64,000 nucleotides of DNA, taken from NCBI RefSeq assembly GCF_023229105.1, contig NZ_JALNZY010000001.1:1938-65937 (forward strand), read 5' to 3'. This DNA comes from Sulfurimonas sp. GTDB taxonomy: Bacteria > Campylobacterota > Campylobacteria > Campylobacterales > Sulfurimonadaceae. Both the position numbers and the translations under genes were made by a program. This document shows, one piece after another, positions 3,174 through 58,942 of the stretch (its first letter is position 1; every line of letters starts with the position of its first letter). The notes below the pieces were generated by a model, which was not told the DNA's origin, searched no databases, and was given only the letters and a program-made list of their open reading frames with translations.

Positions 3174-3188
3174 AGAGGGGGATGAATT

Positions 3189-4403: not shown

Positions 4404-4413
4404 GGAGAATAGG

Positions 4414-26723: not shown

Positions 26724-27074
26724 ATGAAAAAAACAATAGTAGGCTTATCGATTTCAACACTTTTTTTGTGTAATATTTGGGCTCAAGATATAAGTGCCCA
26801 AAGAGGTCAAGTGATATTTGAAACAAAAGGGTGTGTGACATGTCATAAAGATGATATAGATACAATCGGGCCATCATTGTCTACAATTGCCAGAGAGTAT
26901 CTAGGAAAAGAGAGAGAACTTCTCTCTTATCTTAGAGGACAGGCACCGGCTATTATTGATCCTGCGCGTGCACCGGTTATGGATCCGCAACTTGTAAAAA
27001 TCAGGTCGCTTTTTGATCCGGATATGCAAGCGCTTACAATGTACATCATTTCTGCAAACGACAGACCGTTTTAA
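26724..27074 (+). CDS. monoheme class I cytochrome c (c551/c552-like)
   Basis: Signal peptide, CVTCH, IGPSL, distal Met (PVMDPQ). Confidence 0.88.
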   Translation: MKKTIVGLSISTLFLCNIWAQDISAQRGQVIFETKGCVTCHKDDIDTIGPSLSTIAREYLGKERELLSYLRGQAPAIIDPARAPVMDPQLVKIRSLFDPDMQALTMYIISANDRPF

Positions 27075-27102: not shown

Positions 27103-28287
27103 ATGAAATATAGCTGGTTTTTTATATTAAAGATAGTAGTTGTCATGCTATCTGTTAGTGTCTTCGCACAAGGAGCTGTTTTAACAGATGCTGAGAAGTT
27201 TTACGGCACAGAACTCAAAGCATCAAAAAAAGTTCAGCACCCTCCTTTTGAGTGGGGTGACTGTACTGTTTGTCATACGGACGCAAAGGGGGAAGGAGCT
27301 CTTATTATGGATCCTCCTGAGTTATGTGCTATGTGTCATGAAGCAAAAGACACCAAAGCATTTATTCATGGTCCGGTAGCAGCAGGTGCATGTACAGCTT
27401 GCCATAATCCACATGAATCAGATAATGCAAAATTATTAACAGCATCTAGTATAAATGAGCTTTGTGTTTCATGTCATCAAGCTAAAGATGAGTTTATGCG
27501 CAATACCGCAAATATCCACTCGCCAGTAAAAGATCAGTGTATTAATTGCCATGACCCCCATACCGAGGATCATCAGTATCAATTAAAAGCCGATGGTAAA
27601 AAAGATCTCTGTGTTATGTGCCATGTCGATAAAGAAGTTTGGACAAGCACGGTAACAGATAAGCACGGCGCACTTGATAGACCTAGAAAGTGTTTAGAGT
27701 GTCATGATGCGCATGGCTCAGAGGTGCCGATGAATTTGATTAAAAATACTTCAAAAGAGCTCTGTTTGTCATGTCACAGCGAATCATTAACAAGAGATGA
27801 AGACGGTAGTAAGATTCTAAATATAGGAAAACATCTTGAAAATAATCCTGACTGGCATGGTCCTATTCTCTGGGGAGATTGTGCAGCATGTCACAATCCG
27901 CATGGTTCAAATAACTTAAGAATGTTGAACAAGCCGTTCCCTAGAACTTTCTATGATAAGTTTGAAGAGGATAACTATATCTGTTTTCAGTGCCATGAAA
28001 AAGAGAAGATTATGGATGCCAATACAACAACAGCGACAAATTTTAGAAACGGCTCAAACAATATGCACTTTGTACATGTAAACAAAGAAAAAGGTCGCTC
28101 TTGCCGAGCTTGTCATGATTTCCATGGTACAAAAGAGTATCCGCACCACTTAAGAGCAAAGACGAAGTTTGGTAAGATAAACTTCCCTATTCGTTTCATT
28201 GAAACGGAAAACGGCGGTTCATGTGCACCTGCCTGCCACGCTCGCCGTCACTATGACAGAGCAACGCCAAAAGTTAACCTTAAATAA
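27103..28287 (+). CDS. periplasmic dodecaheme cytochrome c (paired-CXXCH type; 11 CXXCH + CX3CH)
   Basis: Signal peptide; repeating H-x-P...CXXCH-xPH...L-CXXCH units; terminal CAPACH. Confidence 0.92.
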   Translation: MKYSWFFILKIVVVMLSVSVFAQGAVLTDAEKFYGTELKASKKVQHPPFEWGDCTVCHTDAKGEGALIMDPPELCAMCHEAKDTKAFIHGPVAAGACTACHNPHESDNAKLLTASSINELCVSCHQAKDEFMRNTANIHSPVKDQCINCHDPHTEDHQYQLKADGKKDLCVMCHVDKEVWTSTVTDKHGALDRPRKCLECHDAHGSEVPMNLIKNTSKELCLSCHSESLTRDEDGSKILNIGKHLENNPDWHGPILWGDCAACHNPHGSNNLRMLNKPFPRTFYDKFEEDNYICFQCHEKEKIMDANTTTATNFRNGSNNMHFVHVNKEKGRSCRACHDFHGTKEYPHHLRAKTKFGKINFPIRFIETENGGSCAPACHARRHYDRATPKVNLK

Positions 28288-28288
28288 A

Positions 28289-29314
28289 ATGAGTTTTAAA
28301 TTTATATACTTATTTCTCTTGTTATTTACCACAATAAGTGGTAATGCGCAAGAGATATCTTCCTTAATACTTCAGCCTCAAGATAAAACACGTTATATTG
28401 GAGAGAGCAGCACTTTTGTAATAAATGCTACGCTTAAAGAGGCAGACTATATAGTTATAGAGCAAAGTGATATAACTACGACATTAGAAATAAAACCGCA
28501 AAAAGATACATACTGTAAAACAATTAACCTCAATCCGGGAGAAAACACTGTTTTTGTTACTCTTTACAAGGATGCAAAACCTATAGGTAAAAGTAGTAGA
28601 GTGCTCTATTTTCTTTCAGAACTTTTTGAGGGAGTTGATGAATATGAGCTTGATGAGTACAAGATAAGATTTTTTCATCAGGATGCCAAAGAGAAGAAGT
28701 GTGCCTCATGTCACAATATGACATCAAATATTCCAACGAATAATGAAGCTCTTGAAGATGTGACAAAAACCACATGTTATGAGTGTCACAACAGCATGAT
28801 AAGTACAAAAAACACACATGCTCCAGCTGCCAACTGGCTTTGCATCAATTGCCATAATGGAAAATTTGGCGAGTATAATATGCAAGATAAAGGCGCTTCA
28901 AAATACTTAGTAGCAGATCCAGTGGCAAAAACTTGTGCAGAGTGTCACGAGGATGTTAAAGAGTGGGAAGAGAGTAAATTTGGACATGGTCCTGTGAATG
29001 ATGGAAGATGTGAGAGGTGTCATAACCCACACGGCTCAGACAACGAGTTTTTTCTAAGAAAATCAATCTGGGAGTTGTGCACTACATGTCATGCTGAAAA
29101 ATCAAATGGACAACATGTTACATCAGCTATAGGTTTTGGTGCACCGAATAAAAGTGGAGGACATCCAACAAGAGATAGAGAAGACCCTGCACGTCCCGGA
29201 AGAGAACTTACTTGTAGCGGATGCCATAACCCGCACGGTTCCGGCGGAATATCTCTGTTAAGAATGAAGGGAACTATGCCTTATGGCGTATGTCAAAGAT
29301 GCCACAAGAAGTAA
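28289..29314 (+). CDS. octaheme cytochrome c with N-terminal non-heme beta-sandwich-like domain
   Basis: Start moved to MSFKFIY at 28289; signal peptide; ~130-aa heme-free region, then 8 CXXCH. Confidence 0.9.
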   Translation: MSFKFIYLFLLLFTTISGNAQEISSLILQPQDKTRYIGESSTFVINATLKEADYIVIEQSDITTTLEIKPQKDTYCKTINLNPGENTVFVTLYKDAKPIGKSSRVLYFLSELFEGVDEYELDEYKIRFFHQDAKEKKCASCHNMTSNIPTNNEALEDVTKTTCYECHNSMISTKNTHAPAANWLCINCHNGKFGEYNMQDKGASKYLVADPVAKTCAECHEDVKEWEESKFGHGPVNDGRCERCHNPHGSDNEFFLRKSIWELCTTCHAEKSNGQHVTSAIGFGAPNKSGGHPTRDREDPARPGRELTCSGCHNPHGSGGISLLRMKGTMPYGVCQRCHKK

Positions 29315-29505: not shown

Positions 29506-30249
29506 ATGATTAGTAATAAAATCAAAGTTATTCTGTTTGCATCAATGTTAGGTGCCTCGTCTGTATTTGCTGGTCCGATTAGTGGTAGTCCGCATGACTT
29601 GTCCGCTCTTGCTGGATTAGATAGTTCAACTGCTGACAATGGGGAGATATGTGTATATTGTCATACGCCTCACGCGGCAAACTCCGCTTTTACAGGTGCG
29701 CCTTTGTGGAACAAGGCTACTCCAGCGGGAACATTTGATATGTATGGTGCAACAATAGCAGGAACAAATACAGAGGCAGCTCCGGCGAGTCCGTCTTTAG
29801 CATGCCTTAGCTGTCATGATGGTGTTAGTGCGATAGACTCTATTGTAAATGCACCCGGTTCTGGTATGAAATCAGTAACTGGATCTAAAGACATAGTAAC
29901 TGGTCTTGCGACTCAGTATGGCGGGAACATAGGTGGTCCGCTAAATGCTACGACTACGGGTAACCCTGATTTGACAAACGATCATCCTGTATCGATTATA
30001 TATACAGAGGGTAAAGCTGGACTTAGAGCGACTACTGTAAATCTTGCAACACTAGGTGATAATATTGCTTGGTTGGGTGCTACAACTATTGGAGATTTGC
30101 TTCGCGGGCCTACAAATGATCAAGTAGAGTGCGGTAGTTGTCATGATCCACATAACGGTGGAAATGATCAAGCAACAGCTACTGAAGTTAACTTCCTTCG
30201 CCATACAAATAAAAACAGCTACCTTTGTCTAGGTTGCCACAATAAATAA
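29506..30249 (+). CDS. secreted tetraheme cytochrome c, OmcE-like (candidate nanowire subunit)
   Basis: Sec signal (SVFA/G); PHDLS, EICVYCHTPH, PLWN, CLSCHDG, DLTNDHPV, VECGSCHDPH, FLR, LCLGCH. This order matches my recollection of Geobacter OmcE. Confidence 0.8.
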   Translation: MISNKIKVILFASMLGASSVFAGPISGSPHDLSALAGLDSSTADNGEICVYCHTPHAANSAFTGAPLWNKATPAGTFDMYGATIAGTNTEAAPASPSLACLSCHDGVSAIDSIVNAPGSGMKSVTGSKDIVTGLATQYGGNIGGPLNATTTGNPDLTNDHPVSIIYTEGKAGLRATTVNLATLGDNIAWLGATTIGDLLRGPTNDQVECGSCHDPHNGGNDQATATEVNFLRHTNKNSYLCLGCHNK

Positions 30250-30347: not shown

Positions 30348-31451
30348 ATGAAAATCATCTTTCTTTCAATTCAAGTTATTATAATGTTCTTTTTTCAGGC
30401 TTGTGCTACCAAAGAGGTTGAAGTAGAAAAAATTATAACATTTCCTCAATATCCACAAACACCAAAAATACTGTATCTAACCACATACAGAGGTGGTGCA
30501 AAAGAGGATAAGTCAAGTGCATTAGATGTTTTTTTGGGTGAAAAAAAGAGTGAAAAAAAGGTTTCAAACATCATCAAGCCATATGGTGTTGGACTTCAAG
30601 ATGGCAAAGTGTATGTTGCGGATACAGGTTCGGATGCAGTATTTGTAATAGATGAGAATAGCAGAGAGCTTAAGTTTATAGGCAACGGTATAGTAGGCAG
30701 ACTTGCTGCACCTGTTGGAATTGCATTTGATAGAGATAAAAATTTATATGTAAGTGATTCGCGTGAGAGAAAAATAAACGGCTATAACTTAAACGGAGAG
30801 CTAAATTTTGTTCTTGGGGATAGAATGGAGTTTGCAAGCCCTACGGGAATTGCAGTAGATAAAAAACAGCACAGACTTTATGTTGTAGATACAAAAGCGC
30901 ATCAGTTTAAAGCTTACGATATTGCTACAAAAGAGCTTCTGTATAGCGTAGGTCAAAGAGGCACAAATGATGCAGAGTTTAACTTTCCTACAAACATTGC
31001 AGTAGATCAAAGAAATGGAAATATAGTAGTTGTAGATACACAAAACTTTCGAGTACAAATATTTGATAAAGATGGAAAATTTATAAGCAAGTTTGGAAAT
31101 ATCGGCAATAAGCCGGGAACATTTGCAAGACCAAAAGGTGTCGGTATTGACAGTGAGGGTAACATTTATATAGCTGATAGCGCGTTTAACAATATTCAGA
31201 TATTTGATGAGAAGGGAAGCGCACTGCTTATGTTTTTTGGCGGTGGGGGTTATGGTCCAACTCAGTTTCGTCTAGTTACTGGAGTATATATAGATGAGAA
31301 TGACAAGATAATAGTTGCTGATGGTTTTAGCGGAAGAGTACAGACATTTCAGTATATTAGTGAGAAATGGAAAGAGAACAATCCTCAGAAATATAGTGAA
31401 ATTACTGCTCCTCCAAATCTAGAATCGGATAATAAAACAGAAAAAAAGTAG
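30348..31451 (+). CDS. NHL-repeat (6-bladed beta-propeller) lipoprotein
   Basis: Lipobox FQAC; repeats PYGVG/PVGIA/PTGIA/PTNIA/PKGVG...YVADT, FNFP, NFRVQIFD. Confidence 0.92.
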   Translation: MKIIFLSIQVIIMFFFQACATKEVEVEKIITFPQYPQTPKILYLTTYRGGAKEDKSSALDVFLGEKKSEKKVSNIIKPYGVGLQDGKVYVADTGSDAVFVIDENSRELKFIGNGIVGRLAAPVGIAFDRDKNLYVSDSRERKINGYNLNGELNFVLGDRMEFASPTGIAVDKKQHRLYVVDTKAHQFKAYDIATKELLYSVGQRGTNDAEFNFPTNIAVDQRNGNIVVVDTQNFRVQIFDKDGKFISKFGNIGNKPGTFARPKGVGIDSEGNIYIADSAFNNIQIFDEKGSALLMFFGGGGYGPTQFRLVTGVYIDENDKIIVADGFSGRVQTFQYISEKWKENNPQKYSEITAPPNLESDNKTEKK

Positions 31452-31460
31452 GGTGGGGTT

Positions 31461-32396
31461 TTGAATAAAGTATTTTTAATAGCCGTTTTAGGCACATTTT
31501 TATACGCAGGTAAGATACTGTTACCGGAATCTACGGTTGCAGTTGTCAATGGTACTGCTATTTCAGTAGATGAGAGAGACAAAGAGGTTGGAAAACTGCT
31601 TCCAAAAGCATATTTTCACTCAAGCGTAAATGCTGAAAAGCTAAAAGATTTACAAGAAAAAGCACTGGAAACATTGATTGAAAAAACACTGCTTTATACT
31701 TATGCTGTTTCAAAAAATATAAAAACAAGTGAGAGTGAAGTAGATGAAGTTATGACAAATCTCGCTGCAACTTACGGCTCTAAAGAAAAGCTAGAAGAAG
31801 CAGTGAAGCAGCTTGGATTTACAAAAGAGACTTTTAGAGAAGTTGTTAAAAAAGATGAAACACTAAAAAAACTTTATAAAAAAGAGATAAAGAGTGATAT
31901 TAGCGATAGAGCGCTAAGAGACTATTATGAAAAAAATAGCTACAAATTTAAAGAACCTGAAAAGATAAGAGTTAGACTGATACATATAAGAAACAACCCT
32001 GAAGATCCAGAAGGCAAAAGCAAAGCAAAAAAGAGAGTTGATGATGCAATGGCAGAGATAAAAAAGGGGACTCCTTTTGCAGATGTAGCGGCAAAATACT
32101 CTACTGCTATGAGCCGCATTAAAGGCGGAGATATGGGATTCCTTCATAGAGGAAGACTGGAAGTAGCGGTTGAAGATGCTGCTTTTTCTATGGAAATTGG
32201 GCAAACAAGTGAGATTATAGAACAAGATATCGGTTTTTTTATAGTAAAAGTGGAAGATAAAGCCCTATCAAATCAGCTCTCTTTTGAAGAAGTCAAAGAT
32301 GGACTTAAGAAGGATTTAAAAACCAAAGAAGAAGATGAAAAAAAAGCAAAACTACTTGAGAGGCTAATGCTAAATTCGGTGATTGTGAAACAATAG
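31461..32396 (+). CDS. periplasmic parvulin-type peptidyl-prolyl isomerase / SurA-PrsA-like chaperone
   Basis: VAVVNGTAIS SurA-N pattern; VRLIHI, FADVAAKYS, KGGDMGF rotamase motifs. Confidence 0.9.
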   Translation: MNKVFLIAVLGTFLYAGKILLPESTVAVVNGTAISVDERDKEVGKLLPKAYFHSSVNAEKLKDLQEKALETLIEKTLLYTYAVSKNIKTSESEVDEVMTNLAATYGSKEKLEEAVKQLGFTKETFREVVKKDETLKKLYKKEIKSDISDRALRDYYEKNSYKFKEPEKIRVRLIHIRNNPEDPEGKSKAKKRVDDAMAEIKKGTPFADVAAKYSTAMSRIKGGDMGFLHRGRLEVAVEDAAFSMEIGQTSEIIEQDIGFFIVKVEDKALSNQLSFEEVKDGLKKDLKTKEEDEKKAKLLERLMLNSVIVKQ

Positions 32397-32397
32397 C

Positions 32398-34179
32398 GTG
32401 TTACAAAAAAAAACCCTATGTTGCCTCTGTCTAACCCTTGCATTAGTCTCAAGGCTTGCGGCAAATGATTATCCCGATGGTGGACTTTATGGAAGCCTAA
32501 ATTATCTATATATTCAAGATGATTATACCAATAGCGGAAGAGAGAACTCAAAAGAGAACTTTTTACAAGAGTATAAAATGGGGTACAAAGGCAATATCTA
32601 TAGTCCACGTCTGCTTGACTACTCACTTGAAGGTCTTATTAGATTTGATACAGAAAAACTTCAAAGAGACAAAGAGACATCAAAGCGTAAAACTTACGGG
32701 GAAGATTATAAAGCATATCTTGATTTTATCAAAGACACAAAAGTTCCTTTTACTATTTATGCGAATAAAACACAAAGACCGGTAAATACGGTTTATAGCG
32801 CTTACTCAACAAATTATCAGTATGAGACAAGCGGCGAGGGAGTAACCGGTTCTTTAAAATTTGAACCGTATATGGTTACATATGGGGCTACTACAATAAA
32901 AACAGTGGCAGAGTTCAGCGACAGACTGCAAGATTCTCGAACTACAACTTACAGTAGTTCATTTCGTTATAACAAAGAAAAGCATAACGTACAAGCAAAC
33001 TATTCACACTCCATATTGGAAAATGAACAAAACTATATTAACGATGAAATTACGAGCATTAATCAAGTCAAAGATATATTTGCAATATCTCATAACTGGA
33101 AAGCTTCTGATGCTTTTAATATAGATTCTACTGCATCATATGAAAATGATGAATATTATGCAAGAGAGACTATGGATGCAGGCGTGAATCTAAACTATAG
33201 ACCAAAAAATGCCGACTATGACACTTACTTATCGTTTCTTGGAACGACAATGGAGTATGGAGATTTAACAGGGGGTGAAAAATATATTTTTGACTCGTTA
33301 AACATTAATCAAGGAGTTAACTACAGGGTAACTCCGAGTATTACTTTATCAGAGTCTGCCATGGCATATTTATATGATAGCACGACCTCAAGTGGCAGCA
33401 ATTCGTATGTTAATTTAGATGCTACTCACAACTATGCAACTACTATATTTTCAGATGTTTCTTTTACTCTTGTAAGCAGGGTGGGTGTGCAAAAAAATGA
33501 TTCTATAGTAAAAACCATCTTAGATGCAAACTCAACCACTACAAAAACAAGTACAGAGAGATATAACATTCAGCTCACCGCTAGAGGGAGAAAAAATTTC
33601 CCTTCTATCAATTCAAATTTAAATATAGACAGTGGCTACTATCACTCTTTGTACTCTACAAAAAGAGAAGAGCAGAGATATAACTTTGGGCTCTATTTTT
33701 TGTCAAAAATTTTTAGTATCGTAAATAATAATATTACTGCCAGATACAGTCATACAAATACTATCCCTGCGCCTTCTTTAATTACGCCAGAAGGAAGAAG
33801 CAGCTATTCAACGACAAATATAATGGAGTCTTTAGATTTTCATTTTAGACTTGGCGCAAGAGGACGAATCAGATTTAGAGTTGGAGCAGAATATGTAAAC
33901 ACAAAAACTGATAATGAAACCAACAGCCGTGTTGACCCAAGAGCAGAGATGAATATGAACTATAGGTTTTTCAATAACTGGATGTTTGATGCTTCCGCAA
34001 GGATAAACGAAGCATACAATACTCTTGAGCATTCAGGAAATGCAAATTTGACATTCAAAGCAGGAAAAACTAGTTTTTTAATGGGATATCAGTATAATAA
34101 GAGTGAGATAGAGAGTGTTTTAAACACAATACAAAATGAGCGTTCAACTTTTAGAGTACAGTTGACGCGGACATTTTAA
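32398..34179 (+). CDS. large outer-membrane beta-barrel protein (porin-cytochrome conduit or secretion pore candidate)
   Basis: GTG start, signal peptide, Tyr/Asn/Ser-rich alternating strands throughout, C-terminal FRVQLTRTF beta-signal, no CXXCH. Confidence 0.8.
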   Translation: MLQKKTLCCLCLTLALVSRLAANDYPDGGLYGSLNYLYIQDDYTNSGRENSKENFLQEYKMGYKGNIYSPRLLDYSLEGLIRFDTEKLQRDKETSKRKTYGEDYKAYLDFIKDTKVPFTIYANKTQRPVNTVYSAYSTNYQYETSGEGVTGSLKFEPYMVTYGATTIKTVAEFSDRLQDSRTTTYSSSFRYNKEKHNVQANYSHSILENEQNYINDEITSINQVKDIFAISHNWKASDAFNIDSTASYENDEYYARETMDAGVNLNYRPKNADYDTYLSFLGTTMEYGDLTGGEKYIFDSLNINQGVNYRVTPSITLSESAMAYLYDSTTSSGSNSYVNLDATHNYATTIFSDVSFTLVSRVGVQKNDSIVKTILDANSTTTKTSTERYNIQLTARGRKNFPSINSNLNIDSGYYHSLYSTKREEQRYNFGLYFLSKIFSIVNNNITARYSHTNTIPAPSLITPEGRSSYSTTNIMESLDFHFRLGARGRIRFRVGAEYVNTKTDNETNSRVDPRAEMNMNYRFFNNWMFDASARINEAYNTLEHSGNANLTFKAGKTSFLMGYQYNKSEIESVLNTIQNERSTFRVQLTRTF

Positions 34180-34192
34180 AGGGGAAAAAGAG

Positions 34193-35203
34193 ATGAAAAT
34201 TTTTTTATATATGCTGGTTTTTATAGGGGGCTTCAATACTTTTTATGCTCAAGAGAGAGTAAAATTGGTATGGCCACCGCCGCCGGATGAGGCCAAAATA
34301 GAGTTTGTCTCTTCTATCCATAATTCTGATGATTTAGGGATAAAAAAAGGTTTTTTTTCAAAGGCTTTTGATTTTTTATTCGGTAAAGAGGAGAGAAGCC
34401 TCCGAGCTCCGTTTGGTGTTCACGCTCATGAAGAGAGAGTTTATACGACCGATATAGCTACAAAATCACTCTATATATTTGATAAAAAAAAGAATAATAT
34501 GATTACGATTAGCGGTTCTAAAAAGGAGCAGTTTTTATATCCTATAGATATTACGACTGATGAGAGTGGAAATATTTATGTCTCAGACTCCGTAAGAGCT
34601 AAAATATATGTCTTTGAAAAAGATGGAGATTACAAATACTCTATAGAGCCAAAAATGCTGCAAAGACCGGTTGGAATTGCTATAAGCCCAGATAAAAAAC
34701 TCTATATCGTAGATGCGCTCTCAAGCCAGATACACGTAACTTCTCTAAAAGGGGACTACTTAGGATCTATCGGCAAAAACGGCACAGGCGATGGAGAGTT
34801 TAACAGACCTACCTTTATGGATATCGGTCATGATGGAAAGCTTTATGTGTCTGACTCTATGAATCATCGTGTGCAGATACTCGGTAGTGATGGAGGGTTT
34901 ATAGATAAATTTGGTAAGTTAGGGCAAGAGATAGGGAACTTTGGTAGTCCTAGGGGTATCTCGATAGATAGTGATGAGAATATTTATGTATGTGATACGA
35001 TGTTTAACAATATACAGATTTTTAATCAAAAAAAAGAGCTATTAATGGTGCTTGGTCGTTATGGAGATAAAAGAGGCGAATTTGCCCTAGCAGAAGATAT
35101 TTCAATAACAAAAGATAATATAATATATGTAACAGATACCAATAATAACCGCATTCAACTCTTTAAGCTTATTAACTCAGCACAGATAAGGAGTTTAAAA
35201 TGA
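34193..35203 (+). CDS. second NHL-repeat beta-propeller protein
   Basis: Signal peptide; PFGV/PIDI/PVGI/RPT/PRGI repeats, GEFNRP, NHRVQI, NNRIQLF. Confidence 0.92.
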   Translation: MKIFLYMLVFIGGFNTFYAQERVKLVWPPPPDEAKIEFVSSIHNSDDLGIKKGFFSKAFDFLFGKEERSLRAPFGVHAHEERVYTTDIATKSLYIFDKKKNNMITISGSKKEQFLYPIDITTDESGNIYVSDSVRAKIYVFEKDGDYKYSIEPKMLQRPVGIAISPDKKLYIVDALSSQIHVTSLKGDYLGSIGKNGTGDGEFNRPTFMDIGHDGKLYVSDSMNHRVQILGSDGGFIDKFGKLGQEIGNFGSPRGISIDSDENIYVCDTMFNNIQIFNQKKELLMVLGRYGDKRGEFALAEDISITKDNIIYVTDTNNNRIQLFKLINSAQIRSLK

Positions 35204-37260
35204 AATCTTTAATAATTACTTTATTGGTTTTTTTGTTTTTTTCAACCATTGAGTCGGCAGCCTCGATTGTAAATACAAAGCATAACCTCTCGGTAACAAG
35301 TGCTGTAGGAAACATAAAAGCTACGAGTGAAACTGAGGTTTGCGTCTTTTGTCATATACCGCATTTCTCACAGACTATTGGAAAGCCGCTTTGGAACAGA
35401 AGTATGCCCACAACAGACTATGTTATGTATGATAGTGATTATCTAAGACGGATGGGTTACCCTTCAATTGCCTCAGACCTTGGCTCGGCAAATGATACTC
35501 CGGGGGCACTCTCTCGTCAATGTCTTAGTTGTCATGATGGAACGATTGCCGTCGGTGCAGTCTCAAAACTTAGACGTGATTATGATGGCTCCTCAACAAT
35601 AGATATGAGCGGTGATGCCCCCGATGGAACCATACCCGATACAGCAGTAGGATTTATAGGCGCGGATCTCTCAAATCATCATCCCGTAGGAGTTGTCTAT
35701 GACCCGACAATAAGTAAAACCTTTGGCAATGGCGGAATCCGCTCAATGGAGCTAAAAGCAATACCAGACGCTCCTATAAAACTTTATGAGTATGCAGGAT
35801 ACAGCGGAAAATATGTAGAGTGTTCCTCCTGCCATAATCCGCATAAAGAGAATAGTAAGTTTTTACACTATGACAGCGGGGCAAACCATGGGCAAAATTT
35901 TGTAGGCACATGTACATCTTGTCATGAAAAAACGGATTGGACAGGGAGTGTGCACCAAAATCCTCCAGGTAATCCAACATATACCGATGCAGAACTTATT
36001 GCAAGATATGGAACTGGTGCTGTAAAAGAGCTTGGGTGTGCAAATTGTCATGTGCCTCACAACGGGGAGGGTGTAGGATACTTAAATAGACAGGTTAACG
36101 AGCAGACATGTTTTCAAGGAGCTGCCTCTACTGAGGGTGGTGCTGCTTGTCATGGTGTCGGCGGGGCAAAAGATATAAAGTCTATTTTAAGCAGATTATA
36201 TACTCATCCTGTCTTGGCGGAGGATAATATTGTGGGAACTCAGCATACAAATCTTGATACGCTCTATGGAACAGGCAATCTTGACCCGCTTGCTATAAAA
36301 GGGATGGACTGGGAAACAAATAAACATGCTGTTTGTATGGATTGTCACAATCCGCACCGTGCACGTGCCGGCACACATATAGTTGACGGTTCATGGTATG
36401 GCGTGCCCGGAGGATCTACAAATCTTGTCTCAAATGTACTTAAGGGAGTCTCCGGTATTGAGCCAACATGGCCGCCAGAATGGACACAGCCGACTACATT
36501 TACAACCATGGAGAGTTCAGAGAAGGAGTACCAAATCTGTTTTAAATGTCACTCATATTGGGGAATAGGTCTTGTAGCTAATAAATATGCTCCTTCAACT
36601 TATACTTCAGCAGGCGGTACTTTGCTTACGGATGTGGCATGGGAGATGAATATAAACAATAAATCTGGACACCCTGTTGTTATAAATTCTCTTGGAAGAA
36701 GTGGTGCTTATGCTCCAAAGGAGCTTGATACAATTCAGCTGCTTACGCCGTGGAAAGAGAATCCAGGGCTTAACACTATGTACTGTTCTGATTGTCACGG
36801 AGCCGATAATGAGCTTGGAGGCGACCCAAAAGGTCCTCATGGCTCAAACTTAAAGTATATTCTTAAAGGTGTAAATCAACACTGGCCGATGAAGCCAGAT
36901 GGTATTACTCTTTACACTATGGATGATTTGAAAAACAATACTGCCCAAGAGCTATTTTGCGCAAACTGCCATGACCCTAAGGAGCCACATACTACATGGT
37001 GGAATAAGATGGCAAACAAAGGTTACCAATGCGTTCAGTGCCATGTAGCAATACCGCATGGTTCTTCTGTTTCTAGACTGGTTGGATATCAGGGTTGGCC
37101 GGCGCCATATAATTATCAAGGGAATAAGTTGACTATGATTGGATATCGAAAAAATGCTTACACGCTTGTTGACCCGCGGGATGCATATGCTACGCATGCA
37201 GGTGGTGGCAGCTGTCATACCACAAATGCCGGTGGTTATGACTTGAACTTGATGCCGTAG
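35200..37260 (+). CDS. secreted multiheme cytochrome c: OmcE-like tetraheme module plus C-terminal extension (10 CXXCH + CX12CH)
   Basis: Signal peptide; SIVNTKHNLS...EVCVFCHIPH...PLWNR...CLSCHDG...DLSNHHPV...VECSSCHNPH...FL...CTSCH, then 7 further sites. Confidence 0.85.
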   Translation: MKSLIITLLVFLFFSTIESAASIVNTKHNLSVTSAVGNIKATSETEVCVFCHIPHFSQTIGKPLWNRSMPTTDYVMYDSDYLRRMGYPSIASDLGSANDTPGALSRQCLSCHDGTIAVGAVSKLRRDYDGSSTIDMSGDAPDGTIPDTAVGFIGADLSNHHPVGVVYDPTISKTFGNGGIRSMELKAIPDAPIKLYEYAGYSGKYVECSSCHNPHKENSKFLHYDSGANHGQNFVGTCTSCHEKTDWTGSVHQNPPGNPTYTDAELIARYGTGAVKELGCANCHVPHNGEGVGYLNRQVNEQTCFQGAASTEGGAACHGVGGAKDIKSILSRLYTHPVLAEDNIVGTQHTNLDTLYGTGNLDPLAIKGMDWETNKHAVCMDCHNPHRARAGTHIVDGSWYGVPGGSTNLVSNVLKGVSGIEPTWPPEWTQPTTFTTMESSEKEYQICFKCHSYWGIGLVANKYAPSTYTSAGGTLLTDVAWEMNINNKSGHPVVINSLGRSGAYAPKELDTIQLLTPWKENPGLNTMYCSDCHGADNELGGDPKGPHGSNLKYILKGVNQHWPMKPDGITLYTMDDLKNNTAQELFCANCHDPKEPHTTWWNKMANKGYQCVQCHVAIPHGSSVSRLVGYQGWPAPYNYQGNKLTMIGYRKNAYTLVDPRDAYATHAGGGSCHTTNAGGYDLNLMP

Positions 37261-37267
37261 GTGTAAG

Positions 37268-37807
37268 ATGAGATTTTTTTTATTAATATTACTATTTTTA
37301 GTGCAGCTTTGTTTTGCTAGCTCAAATGTAAATGATGATAAACGCATAAAAGATTCGTTGTTGAAATATAACTATGGAATCATCAAGATGACAAATAGCG
37401 GCAATACAAAACTTTTAAAAGATATGCTCTCTCAAGAGGTATATTTTAAGTTGATGGTTTGGGCAGACTCTTGGAAGTTCAGCAATCTTGCCATGGTTGC
37501 GCAGATAAATGACTTAAGGTTCTCTCCGATTGCTTACAATGAGAATAATGCCACCATAAGAACTATGGAGAACTGGACATTTGGGTATGCTGACTTGGTA
37601 AAGAGAGATTATGCATTAAAACCTATGACAATCTTTTATAAGATGAAATATACGCTAAAAAAACATCATGGGGAGTGGATAATAGTTGCTGTTGAAAATC
37701 TTCAAGAGGAGGTTTTTACGGAGCCAAATACGCATGAGACATCTTTGCTAGAAAAAAAAGAGAAGCCAAAAGAGGAGGCTGTGCAAGGAAAAATAGAGAC
37801 ACATTAA
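37268..37807 (+). CDS. exported hypothetical protein, NTF2/SnoaL-like fold suspected
   Basis: Signal peptide; ATIRTMENWTFGY...YKMKYTLKKHHGEWIIVAV pattern. Confidence 0.55.
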   Translation: MRFFLLILLFLVQLCFASSNVNDDKRIKDSLLKYNYGIIKMTNSGNTKLLKDMLSQEVYFKLMVWADSWKFSNLAMVAQINDLRFSPIAYNENNATIRTMENWTFGYADLVKRDYALKPMTIFYKMKYTLKKHHGEWIIVAVENLQEEVFTEPNTHETSLLEKKEKPKEEAVQGKIETH

Positions 37808-37902: not shown

Positions 37903-40900
37903 ATGACATTTATTAAAAAAGTGTGGTCATTTTTAATCTCTATGAAATTAATGGCCGTTCTAATTCTGTTATTTGGAGCCGCAAGCGGCGTAGGAACGTT
38001 TATAGAAAATGATTACGGTGTAAATACTTCTTGGGCTGTTATATATGCAAGCAGATGGTTTGAGGCAATTCAGATACTGCTGGGAATAAGTATTTTGGGA
38101 AATATTTTTCGATATAAAATGATTCAGAAAAAAAAGATTCCTGTTCTTATATTCCACGTAGGATTTATAGTTATTTTAATAGGTTCTGGAATAACACGTT
38201 ACTGGGGTTATGAGGGCATAATGAATATACGTGAAGGTGCAACTGAACACCGCATGCTCTCATCTGATGCATTTTTGCAGATAGAGGCAAAAAAGGGCCC
38301 TAAAGAGTTTATAAAACATAAGGTAGTTTATGTCTCTGAGCTTGGGGGAAGAGACTTTAGCGAGAGTTTATATATTGACGATAAAGAGCTTAAGGTAACC
38401 TATAAAGGTTTTATAGCAAAAGCGGTAAAAACGGTTGTTGAAGATCCAAACGGAAAGCCTATAGCAGGACTTGTCATAATGACGCCTCAGGGACCTGAGA
38501 AGTATTTTATAAGCAGCGGAGAATCTTTTGATGTCGGTCCGCTTGCCGTATTTTTTGACAAAGAAGTCTCTGTAAACAAGCCTGTTATTCGCCTTATGAG
38601 CGAGGGAGATAAAATATCTTTTGTGGCTAATGTTCCTATCGGATGGACAAAAATGGCTGATAGAACAGAGGGCGTTTATGAAGCAGGCGTGAAGTACGCA
38701 TTTGATGCGGGAGAGCTCTATAATGTCAGAGGCGTTCAGGTAGTTGCCAAAGAAGTTTATGAGAGAGGTGCAGTCAAGGTTGTTGATGCAGATGAATATC
38801 AAAAAACTGCAAAACAGAATCTTAACATGGATAAAAACCCGCTATCTGCACTCGTAGTAGATGTTACATACAACGGAGAAACACGTGAGGTCGCTATGAT
38901 GGGTAAAGGAAAGCGTTATCAGGGCTTTACAGAGCTGCTAAATATGGATGATATAGAGCTTACACTAGAGTGGGGTGCAAAGATTTTAGAGCTACCGTTT
39001 GCGCTTAAGCTAAATAAATTTGTGATGCTAAAGTACCCAGGCTCGATGAGTCCATCCTCTTATGAGAGCTATATTACTCTGTTGGATAATAAAAACAGTA
39101 TAAAAGAGGATTATAAGATTTATATGAACAATGTACTTGACTATGGTGGATATCTCTTTTTTCAATCATCTTACGACAAAGATGAAAAAGGAACTGTACT
39201 ATCTGTAAATCATGACCCAGGAAAGTGGCCTACCTATATAGGCTATATAATGCTTGGAATAGGGATGTTTCTAAACCTTTTAAATCCAAATAGCTACTTC
39301 GGAAAACTTGCCCGCATGAAATATGAGTACAAGGCTGGAGTTGTTGCAGCAGTTGTGGCTTTTACAACACTTTTTGGCACGCAGCCTCTTGTCGCATCAA
39401 CTGCTGATGCCGGGCAAATTAAACATGTTGATGCAAACCATGCAAATCACTATGGGACTCTGCTTGTTCAGAGTCGTGACGGCAGGATTAAGCCTCTTGA
39501 TACGATGAGTATGGAGTATCTAAATAAAATTACTGCAAAAAGTAGTATGTTTGGACTCAGTCACAATCAGATAATTTTAGGCATGGCATCAAACCCTGAA
39601 GCTTGGAAAGAGGTGGAGATGATTAAAATCTTCCACCCGAAACTGAAAAAAGAGCTAGGAATAGAAGAGTCAAAAAACAGTTTTGCCTACAGCATAGTTT
39701 TTGATAAATTCGGTAACTATATTTTAGGTCCATTGGCGGAAGAGGCTCTTAGAAAACGCCCTGCAGAGAGAGGCACTTACGAAAAAGAGATTATTAAAGT
39801 AGATGAGAGAGTAAATGTCGCTTATATGGTATATTCAGGACGTTTTATGACCGTCTTTCCTTTAAAAGGAGATCAGACTCATAAGTGGTACTATCCTCAA
39901 GAGGCATTAGAAACTTTTCCTAGTGAAGCCGCAAATGAGGTAATGGCTCTTTTAAGAAGCAACTCTCTGGGACTCTCTAAAGGGTTGCAGAGTGGTAACT
40001 GGAGTGATGCAAACAAGGCAATTGACGACATTAAAGCATATCAGGTTAAGATAAACCCAGAGCTAGTAGCAGAAGATATGCTTATAAAAGCAGAGTTGTT
40101 ATATAACAAGCTACAAATCTTTGAGAGGCTTTACCCTATCTATCTGTTGTCCGGTCTTCTTTTGCTTGTGTTGATTTTTATCCGTTTAGCAAAACCTGCT
40201 CTAGACTTAAAAAGAGTTGTGCGCGTGATACTTGTTATTTTTGCAGTTGCATTTGTCGTTCATACGTTTAGCCTTGGACTTCGATGGTACATAGCAGGGC
40301 ATGCACCGTGGAGTAACGGATATGAGGCGATGCTTTATATCTCATGGAGTATAATTTTAGCCGGTCTCTTGTTCGCAAGGTCATCAGAGCTTGCAGTTGC
40401 AACTACAGGTCTTTTTTCGGGAATAACACTTTTTGTAGCACACTTAAGCTGGCTTGATCCTCAAATCACGACCATGGTACCTGTACTTAAATCCTACTGG
40501 CTGACTATACATGTATCTATAATTACGGCGAGTTACGGCTTCCTTGGGCTTAGTACACTGCTTGGCTTTATATCGTTGATATTTTATATTATGCTTGCAA
40601 ATAAGAGTAAACGTGAGCAGATTAGCGTTAACATTATGGAATCTACTCGTATAAGCCAGATGTCAATGATTGTGGGACTTTCTCTTCTTACGCTTGGAAA
40701 CTTTATCGGAGGTGTTTGGGCAAACGAGTCCTGGGGAAGATATTGGGGATGGGACCCTAAAGAGACTTGGACTATAGTTACAATCGCTGTTTATGTTTTT
40801 GCAACACACATGCGTTTTATCCCCGCACTCAAGTCAAACTTTTTATATAATGTAGTCTCCGTTATAGCGTATGCATCAGTCATTATGACTTACTTTGGAG

Positions 40901-41061
40901 TGAACTATTATCTCTCGGGTATGCACTCTTATGCCGCAGGAGATCCTGTTCCGGTACCAGAGTGGATATACTATGTTATCTCTGTAATAGTTTTAGTTAT
41001 TATCATGGCATCGTTAAATCGTGAAAAATTGGTAAAAGTAAAACCGATAATCACAAAGTAG
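37903..41061 (+). CDS. ccsA: fused system II cytochrome c synthase (CcsBA; NrfI/CcsA1/CcsA2 type)
   Basis: ResB-like N-half (FHVGF..ILIG, YPGS..PSSY); CcsA C-half with WANESWGRYWGWDPKETW (WWD domain) and GMHSYA. Confidence 0.95.
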   Translation: MTFIKKVWSFLISMKLMAVLILLFGAASGVGTFIENDYGVNTSWAVIYASRWFEAIQILLGISILGNIFRYKMIQKKKIPVLIFHVGFIVILIGSGITRYWGYEGIMNIREGATEHRMLSSDAFLQIEAKKGPKEFIKHKVVYVSELGGRDFSESLYIDDKELKVTYKGFIAKAVKTVVEDPNGKPIAGLVIMTPQGPEKYFISSGESFDVGPLAVFFDKEVSVNKPVIRLMSEGDKISFVANVPIGWTKMADRTEGVYEAGVKYAFDAGELYNVRGVQVVAKEVYERGAVKVVDADEYQKTAKQNLNMDKNPLSALVVDVTYNGETREVAMMGKGKRYQGFTELLNMDDIELTLEWGAKILELPFALKLNKFVMLKYPGSMSPSSYESYITLLDNKNSIKEDYKIYMNNVLDYGGYLFFQSSYDKDEKGTVLSVNHDPGKWPTYIGYIMLGIGMFLNLLNPNSYFGKLARMKYEYKAGVVAAVVAFTTLFGTQPLVASTADAGQIKHVDANHANHYGTLLVQSRDGRIKPLDTMSMEYLNKITAKSSMFGLSHNQIILGMASNPEAWKEVEMIKIFHPKLKKELGIEESKNSFAYSIVFDKFGNYILGPLAEEALRKRPAERGTYEKEIIKVDERVNVAYMVYSGRFMTVFPLKGDQTHKWYYPQEALETFPSEAANEVMALLRSNSLGLSKGLQSGNWSDANKAIDDIKAYQVKINPELVAEDMLIKAELLYNKLQIFERLYPIYLLSGLLLLVLIFIRLAKPALDLKRVVRVILVIFAVAFVVHTFSLGLRWYIAGHAPWSNGYEAMLYISWSIILAGLLFARSSELAVATTGLFSGITLFVAHLSWLDPQITTMVPVLKSYWLTIHVSIITASYGFLGLSTLLGFISLIFYIMLANKSKREQISVNIMESTRISQMSMIVGLSLLTLGNFIGGVWANESWGRYWGWDPKETWTIVTIAVYVFATHMRFIPALKSNFLYNVVSVIAYASVIMTYFGVNYYLSGMHSYAAGDPVPVPEWIYYVISVIVLVIIMASLNREKLVKVKPIITK

Positions 41062-44378: not shown

Positions 44379-45008
44379 GTGCAAAAAGATGATATGAGAA
44401 TAGAAAGAAAGAGAAAATACTCTTTTGGAATAAGGGTTATAATTGCTCTTATAGTAGGTGGAGTAGTTGTAGGGATGGGAACATCTTTTGTTACGGTCAT
44501 TGCAGTAAAGCATACGTCAGACGTAAACTTTTGTGGTTCTTGCCACTCTATGAAGCCTATGGCTGATGCTTATAGAAATAGTGTTCATGGTGGGTACGGT
44601 GATAGCGGTATTATGGCTACTTGTGCGGATTGTCACTTGCCACATGAATCTACTCTTGGTTATATGGTACAGAAGGTTAAGACCGGTATGTGGGATGTGT
44701 GGGTTGAGACTACGCACGATACTTCAAAAATTGATTGGCATGAGCGTCGCAGAGAGCGTCGTAACTGGGTTTATGATAGTGGATGTCTGCATTGTCATGA
44801 AAACTTATTACGCGGTACCCGACCAAATAAAAAGGCATTTACTGCTCATAAAGCCTATTTCTCTGAAAAACTTTTAGTTGAAGGTGAAGATGGGAAAGAG
44901 CGTGCAAAGTGTGTTGATTGTCACAGAAATGTAGGTCACTATCAACTAGAAAAACATCTTCCGCCACCGCCAGTGGAAGTATATAATGAAAATAATAAAA
45001 AGCATTAA
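44379..45008 (+). CDS. NapC/NirT family membrane-bound tetraheme quinol dehydrogenase (CymA/NrfH-like)
   Basis: GTG start; N-terminal TM helix; TSDVNFCGSCHSM, CADCHLPH, CLHCH, CVDCH..VGH. Confidence 0.93.
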   Translation: MQKDDMRIERKRKYSFGIRVIIALIVGGVVVGMGTSFVTVIAVKHTSDVNFCGSCHSMKPMADAYRNSVHGGYGDSGIMATCADCHLPHESTLGYMVQKVKTGMWDVWVETTHDTSKIDWHERRRERRNWVYDSGCLHCHENLLRGTRPNKKAFTAHKAYFSEKLLVEGEDGKERAKCVDCHRNVGHYQLEKHLPPPPVEVYNENNKKH

Positions 45009-45014
45009 GGAGAT

Positions 45015-45539
45015 ATGATGGAACAAAAATATATTAAACCAACTATTATTGTGGGTGTGCTTGTTATCATTATCATTCTGCTTGCTATGTCAAATGCTGG
45101 TGAAAAGTTTGTGCGTTTAGGAAAAATTGGGGAGCAGATTGCAACCAATCTTGCTAATGCAAGTCATGGAGATCCTCGTTCTCTTAAAGAGATGGACAAA
45201 GAACGAATAAAAGCTACTACGGGTAGCTCTCATACCGTAGATGTCAGTGAGTTGCCAAAGGCATTTCTCCCACTCAAAGAGCATGGGCATCCACCTTTTA
45301 CCCTGGGTGCGTGTAACGTATGTCATGCTTCAAGAACAGATAAGCCCGCTGCAATTACGACTCGTACGGTAGCTGAGCTTTGTTACACATGTCATTATCC
45401 AAAAGAGGAAATTGATAAGCGTATGGCTGCACTAGATTGTAATAAGTGTCACAGCCCTCATCACGCAGATAGGGAAAAACTTGTGCGAAATAAAGTTATT
45501 GAAAAAGAGTGTCCAGTAGGTGAATTTCAATCAAACTAA
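45015..45539 (+). CDS. membrane-anchored triheme cytochrome c
   Basis: N-terminal hydrophobic helix; CNVCH, CYTCH, CNKCH; HPPF.LGAC motif shared with the dodecahemes. Confidence 0.85.
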   Translation: MMEQKYIKPTIIVGVLVIIIILLAMSNAGEKFVRLGKIGEQIATNLANASHGDPRSLKEMDKERIKATTGSSHTVDVSELPKAFLPLKEHGHPPFTLGACNVCHASRTDKPAAITTRTVAELCYTCHYPKEEIDKRMAALDCNKCHSPHHADREKLVRNKVIEKECPVGEFQSN

Positions 45540-45583
45540 TAGTTTGATTGAAATTTGGTAGTTAAAAAACACGAGGTATAGTA

Positions 45584-47104: not shown

Positions 47105-48036
47105 TATCTGCTTATGATTTTGCAAAAGCTTTTATAGCGTTGGCTATATTTTTCACAGGCGCTTTTGCAGAAGATGGGTTTATGCAGGTACTCACTCCAA
47201 AACAGAACCATCTTCAAACTGAGTTGACGCTAAATGTTGTTTTAGAGATAGACAAAAAAAGAGTAGATATCATTAAAATAATGACTCCCTTAGAGGAGAT
47301 AGAGATAGATATGAAAAGCCAAAAAAATACAGAGTGCAAAAACATTCAGCTGAGACTCGGTGAAAACAGAGTTGATATTAGAGCCTATAAAGAGAATGTT
47401 TTAGTAGCTCAAGAGAATAGAGATGTTTATGTCTCATCAGAGCTTTATCATCAGTTTAGGTATCCGCCACAAGAGTATAGCCATACTTATTTTCACAATA
47501 AAGATAATGAGAAACTTTGTGCAAAATGTCACGACATGAGTGTGAATGAAGTAAGTGGTGTGGCATTTGAGGATATTACAAAATCAAACTGTTATGGATG
47601 TCACAAGAGTATAAACAAAGAGAAGTATGCTCATGCCCCTTCGGCAAACTGGCTATGTACTAGCTGTCATATACAGAGCAAAAAAGGTGTCTCCAAATAT
47701 CTCACAAAAGAGCCTATTAATGCTTCATGTTTTGAGTGTCACGAGGAGAACAAAGAGTTATGGGGTAATGCAAAATATCGCCATGAACCATTGGATTCAG
47801 GACACTGCGAGAAGTGTCATAATCCTCACTCCGGTCCCTACATCATGTTTATACGCAAAGATGTAAACCTGATATGTCTGGGATGCCATAAAGATAAGCA
47901 TATAAAAGCGCAGCAGAGCAAAAATTCTGCATGTAGTGGTACTAGCGAGGGGGGCTTATGTATAGAGTGCCATACGCCGCATGCGTCAAATCAGCCGTTT
48001 TTTCTAAAAAAGAGATTTGAGAGAGTTGTAAAATGA
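47101..48036 (+). CDS. heptaheme cytochrome c with N-terminal beta-sandwich-like domain
   Basis: GTG start, signal peptide, 7 CXXCH; paralog of 28289 and 48033. Confidence 0.88.
   Translation: MISAYDFAKAFIALAIFFTGAFAEDGFMQVLTPKQNHLQTELTLNVVLEIDKKRVDIIKIMTPLEEIEIDMKSQKNTECKNIQLRLGENRVDIRAYKENVLVAQENRDVYVSSELYHQFRYPPQEYSHTYFHNKDNEKLCAKCHDMSVNEVSGVAFEDITKSNCYGCHKSINKEKYAHAPSANWLCTSCHIQSKKGVSKYLTKEPINASCFECHEENKELWGNAKYRHEPLDSGHCEKCHNPHSGPYIMFIRKDVNLICLGCHKDKHIKAQQSKNSACSGTSEGGLCIECHTPHASNQPFFLKKRFERVVK
47530..47625 (+). repeat. 96-bp direct repeat, copy 1
   Basis: 94/96 identical to 48465-48560. Confidence 0.9.
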
Positions 48037-58043: not shown

Positions 58044-58201
58044 AACAGAACTCCTTTTTTTGTTGTGATTGATTGTAACATAATAATTTTAATTTATATA
58101 TAAAGTTTTTTTGAATTTTTATGAACTATTTTTGGCGTTAACATTAAGTTTTTTTTAAAGAATAGAGAGTAAAGTAGAGCAGATTTTCACAAAGGTTGTA
58201 T

Positions 58202-58930: not shown

Positions 58931-58942
58931 GGAGGAGCCGAG

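Follow-up and report, generated by a model that had tools for sequence, protein, structure and literature searches.

A four-gene cassette between OmcE-type cytochrome genes of Sulfurimonas as candidate outer-membrane hardware for extracellular electron transfer

Introduction

Even in Geobacter, the route of cytochrome nanowires across the outer membrane and their anchoring there are still unsettled (PMC12307469; bioRxiv 10.1101/2025.10.22.684050). Here we compare the closest described systems with a locus of Sulfurimonas sp. (RefSeq assembly GCF_023229105.1, contig NZ_JALNZY010000001.1, positions 1,938 to 65,937 of the forward strand), and by "the window" we mean this whole stretch of 64,000 nucleotides. 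The element under study is a cassette of four plus-strand genes at positions 30348-35203 of the window. It lies between two genes for OmcE-type cytochromes and encodes an NHL beta-propeller lipoprotein (NHL1), a SurA-like parvulin, a large outer-membrane beta-barrel and a second NHL propeller (NHL2).

In its minimal form an omcE cluster is reported to contain "always" OmcE itself, a pair of multihaem cytochromes, a pair of beta-propeller lipoproteins and a large barrel "putatively functioning as a secretion or anchor". OmcE-type filaments are given a rise of about 29 Å and a twist of 60 degrees, and OmcE homologues have been reported from five phyla, Campylobacterota among them (bioRxiv 10.1101/2025.10.22.684050). 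The uet cluster of Ca. Tenderia electrophaga and the Tenderiales, also found in some Gallionella, comprises in its published order a tetrahaem cytochrome (UetA), a parvulin (UetB), a barrel (UetC), trihaem cytochromes (UetD, UetE and UetG) with a cupredoxin (UetF), two NHL proteins (UetH and UetI), an undecahaem cytochrome (UetJ) and ccsAB (bioRxiv 10.1101/2022.05.06.490989; PMC10734462). For UetC, 28 strands are predicted together with a pore about 5 nm wide, read as a cytochrome sheath (10.1101/2022.05.06.490989), and electron uptake is the direction proposed for the Tenderiales system.

Three further systems share parts with the Sulfurimonas locus. The osc operon of G. sulfurreducens is built around OmcS, a hexahaem cytochrome without sequence similarity to OmcE. 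Shen et al. 2025, as cited in PMC13194489, propose that OscH acts in folding, OscE, OscF and OscG in secretion and OscD in morphology. With its nanowire-cytochrome gene, prolyl isomerase, proposed porin-like secretion set and further accessory proteins, osc as described resembles our locus (PMC13194489, PMC12307469). Export or polymerisation by such genes is still called speculative even in Geobacter (PMC12307469). The MtrCAB system (Shewanella MtrAB, structure 6R2Q) likewise has a multihaem wire in the periplasm, a wide barrel without a plug and a cytochrome outside the cell, but neither propellers nor a dedicated chaperone. In Desulfovibrio ferrophilus IS5, multihaem cytochromes are co-expressed with two NHL beta-propellers that have been proposed to stabilise their complex; no beta-barrel is reported in that cluster, and its likeness to the window is one of description (Deng et al. 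2018, PMC5815863).

Comparison with the omcE and uet clusters

On balance, and with modest confidence, we favour the reading that the four genes encode the outer-membrane components, other than the haem proteins, of a porin-cytochrome system of the OmcE/Uet type that serves extracellular electron transfer. The window is a member of the published omcE-cluster and uet-cluster kind, here in a sulfur-oxidising Sulfurimonas. It combines features of the omcE cluster (two MtrA-like cytochromes) with features of the uet cluster (the parvulin, a UetJ-like cytochrome and ccs genes downstream).

The content of the minimal omcE cluster is present as the cytochromes MHC394 and MHC371, NHL1, NHL2, OmcE247 and the barrel, but NHL2 is no lipoprotein. 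As in the omcE clusters of G. sulfurreducens (GSU0615-0619 region) and D. soudanensis, resB/ccs lies next door. Four of the five components of the G. sulfurreducens cluster are clearly homologous to window proteins: MHC370 to MHC394 (36% identity, E 8e-63), MHC330 to MHC371 (E 8e-39), NHL361 to NHL1 (E 1e-51) and OmcE to OmcE247 (E 2e-27). The Geobacter barrel differs in its length of 752 aa and is marginally related to the window family (hhalign probability 46%, E 2e-4, over the N-terminal 67 columns), and BLAST of the window barrel against it found nothing. The Geobacter locus (L025) also has a different gene order and is without the parvulin, the OmcE-fused large cytochrome and unk179, a conserved secreted protein of the window; its set of glycosylation genes, in turn, is absent from the window.

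In gene content, the published system that comes closest is the uet cluster, which the earlier note on this DNA, made from the sequence alone, had not considered. Judged against the published description, the window has nearly the same parts in nearly the same relative order, with the parvulin in the UetB position. No trihaem c7 cytochrome (UetD, UetE, UetG) and no cupredoxin (UetF) occurs between 26.7 and 41.7 kb. The large cytochrome MHC686 has 10 CXXCH motifs where UetJ has 11, and the window adds two MtrA-like cytochromes upstream. We infer orthology to Tenderia UetA-J from the descriptions and from a proxy, the locus L020 of a gammaproteobacterial metagenome-assembled genome (MAG). Its order is tetrahaem, NHL, barrel, NHL, undecahaem, and its barrel aligns with the window family at an hhalign probability of 97.6%.

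Components of the cassette

The earlier note had described four tightly packed genes between two OmcE-like genes, and all the open reading frames indeed lie where it had placed them, with intergenic gaps of 9, 1 and 13 nt. The NHL2 gene overlaps the next cytochrome gene, MHC686, by 4 nt. NHL1 (30348-31451, 367 aa; Pfam NHL E 1.7e-30) is a six-bladed propeller with a lipobox (FFQAC followed by A), whose cysteine is present in 18 of 18 orthologues examined. NHL2 (34193-35203, 336 aa; Pfam NHL E 4.9e-28) is a soluble non-lipoprotein propeller. Its Sec signal peptide is free of cysteine in 19 of 19 orthologues, among which the mature N-terminus LVWPPPPDE is conserved. One lipoprotein and one propeller with a cleavable signal are also what the note had recognised. 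The two are paralogues (32% identity, E 4e-49), and the closest solved sequence relatives of the propellers are the six-bladed protein-interaction NHL domains of TRIM71 and Thin (E 1e-47 to 1e-49 for NHL1). Since the best structural relatives by sequence are of this kind, we reject enzymatic readings of the NHL proteins (arylesterase, gluconolactonase, ScyF), which arise from sub-threshold cross-matches between propellers in Pfam and NCBIfam.

The parvulin (31461-32396, 311 aa) has an N-terminal signal sequence, a SurA-like N-domain (Pfam SurA_N_3, E 2.6e-12) and one PPIase domain of the PpiC rotamase type (Rotamase_3, E 3.2e-21). With this combination it belongs to the SurA/PrsA/PEB4-type periplasmic chaperones. 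Indeed, its best relatives in the Protein Data Bank (PDB) are SurA, PrsA and Campylobacter PEB4. In role it would be an analogue of OscH.

A predicted plug-less barrel of 28 strands

The barrel gene (32398-34179) encodes 593 aa. Its AlphaFold2 (AF2) model, built with 31 homologues, has 28 antiparallel strands at a mean pLDDT of 87, with no plug and no extra domain. All 27 inter-strand connections are at most 11 aa long, and the strands have one hydrophobic and one polar face. Sequence entropy is 2.02 in the odd-numbered connections versus 1.25 in the even-numbered ones. With a periplasmic N-terminus the odd-numbered ones would lie outside the cell, and the putative outer loops are in other words more variable than the periplasmic turns. 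The chain ends in ...QLTRTF, with R591 and F593 invariant across the 31 homologues, in agreement with the beta-signal that had been noted earlier. Standard barrel geometry gives an estimated C-alpha diameter of about 50-52 Å for 28 strands, versus about 47-48 Å for 26. The structure prediction that the earlier note had proposed as a check gives the 28 strands; the diameter of about 5 nm, a geometric estimate, is in principle wide enough for a folded tetrahaem subunit.

Among 350,000 PDB chains, the top fold neighbour of the model is MtrB (6R2Q_B, E 1.9e-11; Foldseek), and PapC and BtuB are also among its neighbours. The two MtrA-like cytochromes encoded upstream, MHC394 and MHC371, each have 6R2Q_A as their sole sequence relative in the PDB (E 3.4e-15 and E 1.4e-13). 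The PDB tool labels this chain "Cystathionine beta-synthase"; on account of its length of 333 aa and the entry title "Structure of the Mtr complex", it is taken here to be MtrA and the printed name to be a labelling error. The conduit reading draws on these two matches together, and on the presence of at least one MtrA-like cytochrome beside the barrel in every sufficiently long locus. Unlike the MtrCAB system, the window combines a barrel of 28 rather than 26 strands with an extracellular partner of the OmcE rather than the MtrC type.

At the sequence level the barrel stands apart. It has no match in Pfam or NCBIfam, a search of its family profile against PDB sequences found nothing, and the 43 family members scanned are not sequence members of the MtrB/PioB family, for which we take PF11854 and TIGR03509 to be the models in these libraries. 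The barrel is, as far as its sequence goes, a family without a Pfam or NCBIfam model, which is a new point. On the S. marisnigri homologue (P0082), UniRef carries the label "TIGR03016 PEP-CTERM-associated outer membrane protein"; NCBIfam gave it to none of the 43 members scanned, a set outside which P0082 itself falls. The family is rare, with 103 clusters in 1.84 billion representative proteins. Its distant members were reached by an exhaustive HMM search, and a word-index search with the 43-sequence alignment gave one new protein. The closest homologues are all labelled Sulfurimonas or Campylobacterota.

The same barrel could instead be a translocon. The earlier note had proposed that the cassette is a secretion and assembly machine for cytochromes. 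In such a machine, haem-loaded OmcE247 and MHC686 would pass through the barrel and polymerise there in the style of chaperone-usher or curli systems. The parvulin would keep the subunits export-competent, the NHL propellers would recruit or order them, and polymerisation would be the driving force. We regard this as possible but doubtful. The fold neighbours of the barrel include LptD and the ushers FimD and PapC, and the estimated diameter would in principle admit a folded subunit. A chaperone and two propellers in such strict linkage are more characteristic of assembly systems than of conduits of the MtrAB type. The osc scheme of Shen et al. 2025 as cited in PMC13194489 (OscH in folding, OscEFG in secretion, OscD in morphology) points in the same direction, as does the porin-mounted model favoured for OmcE and OmcS (bioRxiv 10.1101/2025.10.22.684050). 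The osc proposal and the propellers beside omcE, both of which the note had named, do exist in the literature. However, 28 strands and their short turns take up all 593 aa, which leaves neither a plug nor usher-like recruiting domains, and secretion is still called speculative for Geobacter itself (PMC12307469). An usher is a 24-strand, plug-bearing barrel with N- and C-terminal periplasmic domains, and on this comparison the window barrel does not belong to the chaperone-usher class. In the fold search, FimD and PapC would appear to be only generic barrel neighbours.

Conservation across lineages

A genome scan with the barrel profile yielded 19 loci, all from Sulfurimonadaceae or Helicobacteraceae MAGs, and the full 12-gene order of the block around the cassette is kept in all those of sufficient length. 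Across these loci, identity with the proteins of the window is 75-89% for MHC394, 62-90% for NHL1, 52-81% for OmcE247 and 31-82% for the barrel. Judged from sequence, this is the gradient that would be expected from periplasmic to surface-exposed proteins. Seven distant barrel loci came with flanking DNA (L020, L022, L023, L026, L027, L028 and L029). In six of the seven, NHL genes flank the barrel gene on either side, a small OmcE-like cytochrome is encoded and a gene for a large cytochrome follows the second NHL gene; ccs genes come next wherever the contig continues. The remaining locus, L028, has the order tetrahaem, parvulin, barrel, which is that of uetABC, and is without NHL genes. A core of small OmcE-like cytochrome, NHL protein, optional parvulin, barrel, NHL protein, large cytochrome and Ccs thus recurs in distant lineages of higher GC (43-56%, the window itself having 35-41%).

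The locus L029 (CP054493.1:2227604-2249397) lies in the complete genome of Ca. Sulfurimonas marisnigri SoZ1, a cultured reducer of Mn(IV) oxide, and contains the whole cluster. Its chromosomal neighbourhood is that of the window, with molybdopterin oxidoreductase, UPF0102, thioredoxin and aldehyde dehydrogenase genes upstream. We also observe that in L029 CcsA and ResB are split, an extra 195-aa gene follows the tetrahaem gene and a 1473-aa subtilisin-like protein is encoded downstream.

These loci bear on whether the cassette is a unit at all. The barrel has no annotated family and SurA-like chaperones are housekeeping proteins in many bacteria, so a general porin, a housekeeping chaperone of the SurA/PEB4 type and unrelated propellers might have come to lie among cytochrome genes by chance. 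We consider this very improbable. Within Sulfurimonadaceae the genes keep their order and adjacency where barrel identity is 31-35%, and they also do so in the lineages of 43-56% GC. The barrel family is rare, and every one of its members with fetched flanks sits in a cytochrome cluster. The arrangement is not due to chance, since its order is kept across the Sulfurimonadaceae and Helicobacteraceae loci, in Ca. S. marisnigri and in the distant loci; synteny effectively refutes the reading as chance neighbours.

Gene content is informative on export as well. The barrel gene always lies beside an OmcE-like gene, which speaks for the export reading. A parvulin gene is directly upstream of the barrel in four of the seven distant loci (L022, L026, L028 and L029). 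It is missing from L020, L023, L027 and the Geobacter locus L025, which are otherwise complete clusters, and the parvulin is therefore accessory and inessential to the core. The absence of NHL proteins from L028 likewise argues against a machine in which they recruit subunits. In every fetched locus with enough flanking DNA, the barrel and an OmcE-like small cytochrome are accompanied by one or more MtrA-like cytochromes, for which a pure secretion machine would have no need. The loci thus show an architecture of periplasmic cytochrome, porin and extracellular cytochrome. The part of the earlier proposal that finds support is the genomic context of the cassette, homologous to that of omcE in Geobacter. 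An export and polymerisation apparatus finds none in the form put forward: an MtrAB-like conduit accounts for the evidence no less well, and the barrel is without the plug or the periplasmic domains of a chaperone-usher translocon.

OmcE-type cytochromes on both sides of the cassette

Upstream of the cassette, OmcE247 (29506-30249, plus strand, 247 aa) is a secreted tetrahaem cytochrome of the OmcE family, the equivalent of UetA and a candidate subunit of an extracellular wire. Its residues 5-247 match Geobacter OmcE (7TFS) at E 1.6e-22, and it matches the D. soudanensis OmcE bundle structure 9YUQ at E 2.7e-18. In alignments of 13 and of 41 sequences, the former including the known filament former G. 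sulfurreducens OmcE, the CXXCH set C49/C52/H53, C100/C103/H104, C209/C212/H213 and C241/C244/H245 is invariant. The distal ligands H30, H56, H160 and H216 are invariant as well, so that all eight haem-ligand histidines are kept. The AF2 model of OmcE247, made with 40 OmcE homologues and without haems, reached a pLDDT of only 39; haem-scaffolded coil proteins evidently need haem-aware structure prediction.

Downstream, MHC686 (35200-37260, plus strand) is a UetJ-like decahaem cytochrome with 10 CXXCH motifs, in which an OmcE-like module (about residues 1-245) is followed by about 440 aa with six CXXCH motifs. Its residues 7-223 match 7TFS (E 5.3e-22), and it matches 9YUQ too. It is homologous to the 11-haem protein adjoining the barrel in the gammaproteobacterial locus L020 (E 2e-52), and further homologues are MHC734 of L022 and MHC792 of L023. 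Going by sequence comparison, in MHC686 and its relatives a complete OmcE module continues into an extension with six or seven haems. Residues 245-299 of MHC686 weakly resemble NrfA-type nitrite reductases (E 0.004). In the distant, higher-GC locus L023 (6626-8413), the OmcE-like gene is triplicated into products of 247, 286 and 288 aa with four CXXCH motifs each, two of which have glycine-rich tails (...GGGL).

OmcE247 and MHC686 need not form a filament. They could remain unpolymerised as an MtrC-like cap that the NHL propellers hold on the barrel. As a single chain with an OmcE module and six further haems, MHC686 could be a self-contained terminal reductase; NHL propellers have been proposed to stabilise an outer-membrane cytochrome complex in D. 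ferrophilus (Deng et al. 2018, PMC5815863), and no filament has been seen in any Campylobacterota. We nevertheless hold a non-filament surface complex to be improbable, given that OmcE247 keeps the eight histidine ligands invariant in OmcE homologues, including the filament-forming G. sulfurreducens OmcE, and matches the filament-forming D. soudanensis protein in 9YUQ.

The remainder of the block and its surroundings

The cassette is part of a block of twelve plus-strand genes at 26.7-41.7 kb, which runs from a monohaem cytochrome c through a DUF4136 lipoprotein. The first gene (26724-27074, 116 aa) encodes a class I cytochrome c with a signal peptide and one CXXCH motif. It is syntenic in the Sulfurimonadaceae loci and present in L026 and L029 too. 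MHC394 (27103-28287, plus strand) is a periplasmic MtrA/DmsE-like multihaem cytochrome with 11 CXXCH motifs and one CX3CH motif, and a candidate for the haem wire inserted in the barrel. It contains five Paired_CXXCH_1 stretches, matches the DmsE family at 120 bits, under the cut-off of 192 bits, and is the most conserved protein of the block in the Sulfurimonadaceae loci. The octahaem cytochrome MHC371/341 (28289-29314, plus strand, 8 CXXCH) also has a sub-threshold DmsE-family match in NCBIfam, and matches MHC325 of L023 at E 2e-59. Its longest open reading frame opens at a TTG at 28199, which overlaps the MHC394 gene by 89 nt, whereas the signal peptide (MSFKFIYLF...) begins at the ATG at 28289, one base past the MHC394 stop. 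Since the signal peptide begins there, ATG 28289 is probably the true start and the annotated start should move.

Always encoded next after the large cytochrome, unk179 (37268-37807, plus strand, 179 aa) is a conserved secreted protein without a Pfam or NCBIfam match. It is syntenic in the Sulfurimonadaceae loci and has homologues in L023 (E 3e-18) and L022 (E 3e-11). Proteins of similar size occupy its position in L026, L027 and L029. The next gene (37903-41061, plus strand) encodes CcsBA, a fused ResB-CcsA cytochrome c synthetase of system II (Pfam ResB and Cytochrom_C_asm). Similarly, ccs genes adjoin the cluster in L023, L026, L027, L029 and the G. sulfurreducens locus L025.

A second multihaem set lies 3 kb downstream of the block (44379-49043, plus strand). 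It consists of a membrane-anchored NapC/NirT tetrahaem quinol dehydrogenase of 209 aa (Pfam Cytochrom_NNT, E 5e-33) and the four multihaem cytochromes MHC174, MHC506, MHC311 and MHC336, described as a set paralogous to MHC394 and MHC371. MHC506 matches MHC394 (42% identity, E 3e-100), MHC336 matches MHC371 (E 6e-91), and MHC311 is also a paralogue of MHC371. L027 likewise has a NapC/NirT gene after ccs. The set probably provides a quinol-linked periplasmic electron feed to the outer-membrane module.

Promoter and terminator scans of 26-42 kb did no better than on shuffled sequence (52 promoter-like sites versus 49.1, and 11 terminator-like sites versus 9.6), so that tight gene spacing is the sole basis for the operon structure. 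No type II secretion or type IV pilus gene was found among the scanned open reading frames, those of 120 aa or more, which together account for most of the 64-kb window. DNA nearly identical to the locus occurs in DNA runs from groundwater and landfill metagenomes.

We further note several features elsewhere in the window. Genes for a Rieske protein, cytochrome b and cytochrome c1 (bc1 complex) lie upstream at 2649-5361, preceded by a gene for a PAS-GGDEF protein (605-1459), and a second GGDEF protein is encoded at 52722-53834. At 58196-62044, a LolA-like protein is followed by two FtsX/MacB-type permeases and, to judge from its place, an ABC ATPase; the set may serve in lipoprotein sorting or as an exporter like MacB.

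Discussion

A plug-less pore of 28 strands cannot stay open in a living cell, and something must therefore fill the barrel. In the porin-cytochrome reading that we favour, the barrel would span the outer membrane with a protein partner in its lumen. The likeliest partner would be a long haem wire, MHC394 and/or MHC371, that enters from the periplasm. Outside, this wire would meet the OmcE-type cytochromes OmcE247 and MHC686, mounted on the outer mouth of the barrel, where OmcE247 may polymerise. The barrel would thus act as electron conduit and as anchor of the extracellular cytochromes, and it may double as their export route. NHL1 and NHL2 would be propeller scaffolds or caps that dock on the barrel or on the cytochromes. 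LptE is a lipoprotein plug of LptD and BtuG a propeller on BtuB, and by analogy these pairs may serve as precedents for a lipoprotein that plugs or caps a barrel. The SurA-like parvulin may chaperone the very large barrel, the coil-rich cytochromes, or both, and CcsBA would mature the haem proteins. The NapC/NirT cytochrome and the paralogous periplasmic cytochromes would link the system to the quinone pool, with electrons either entering or leaving.

Several points weigh against this reading. In absolute terms the barrel matches MtrB only weakly (TM 0.36), and MtrB is closely followed among the fold neighbours by TonB-dependent receptors, LptD and the FimD usher. None of the 43 members of the barrel family matches any outer-membrane-protein model of Pfam-A or NCBIfam at E<0.1, no RNA-seq run contains the locus, and the choice of the lumen-filling protein is a guess. 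An MtrAB-type conduit has no obvious need for two propellers and a dedicated chaperone; that these are so strictly linked hints at a role in assembly or export in addition to conduction. The extracellular cytochromes must also cross the outer membrane somewhere, and the block encodes neither an ATPase nor any other candidate route. For this last reason, conduction and export through the same barrel are not mutually exclusive.

The Desulfuromonadia preprint asked what makes the tip or stopper of a filament and found no candidate in its operons (bioRxiv 10.1101/2025.10.22.684050). As its sequence combines an OmcE module with further haems, MHC686 is a candidate for the base or the tip of a filament. 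A bolder hypothesis, which we offer as speculative and rather unlikely, is that MHC686 is the missing "base or tip" of an OmcE-type nanowire, that the cassette is a self-contained, ATP-independent and porin-mounted assembly platform, and that the whole is the Mn(IV)-oxide machinery of Ca. S. marisnigri. The OmcE module of MHC686 could then attach to the polymer of OmcE247 by the same His-haem interface, and its six-haem C-terminal extension would either thread the barrel, connecting filament to periplasm, or show its haems to the mineral.

The locus presents the core nanowire toolkit in Campylobacterota in a compact form, without glycosylation genes and at a fixed chromosomal position. Surveys of extracellular electron transfer that use porin models of the MtrB/PioB type would miss the barrel family. 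In a metatranscriptome study, "an undetected porin" was suspected for a Sulfurimonas MAG (PMC11748539), and the barrel is a candidate for it. Our search of the available literature found no publication that links the cluster to Mn(IV)-oxide respiration in Ca. S. marisnigri; with the whole cluster present in SoZ1, it is a concrete candidate for the pathway by which this cultured organism respires Mn(IV) oxide.

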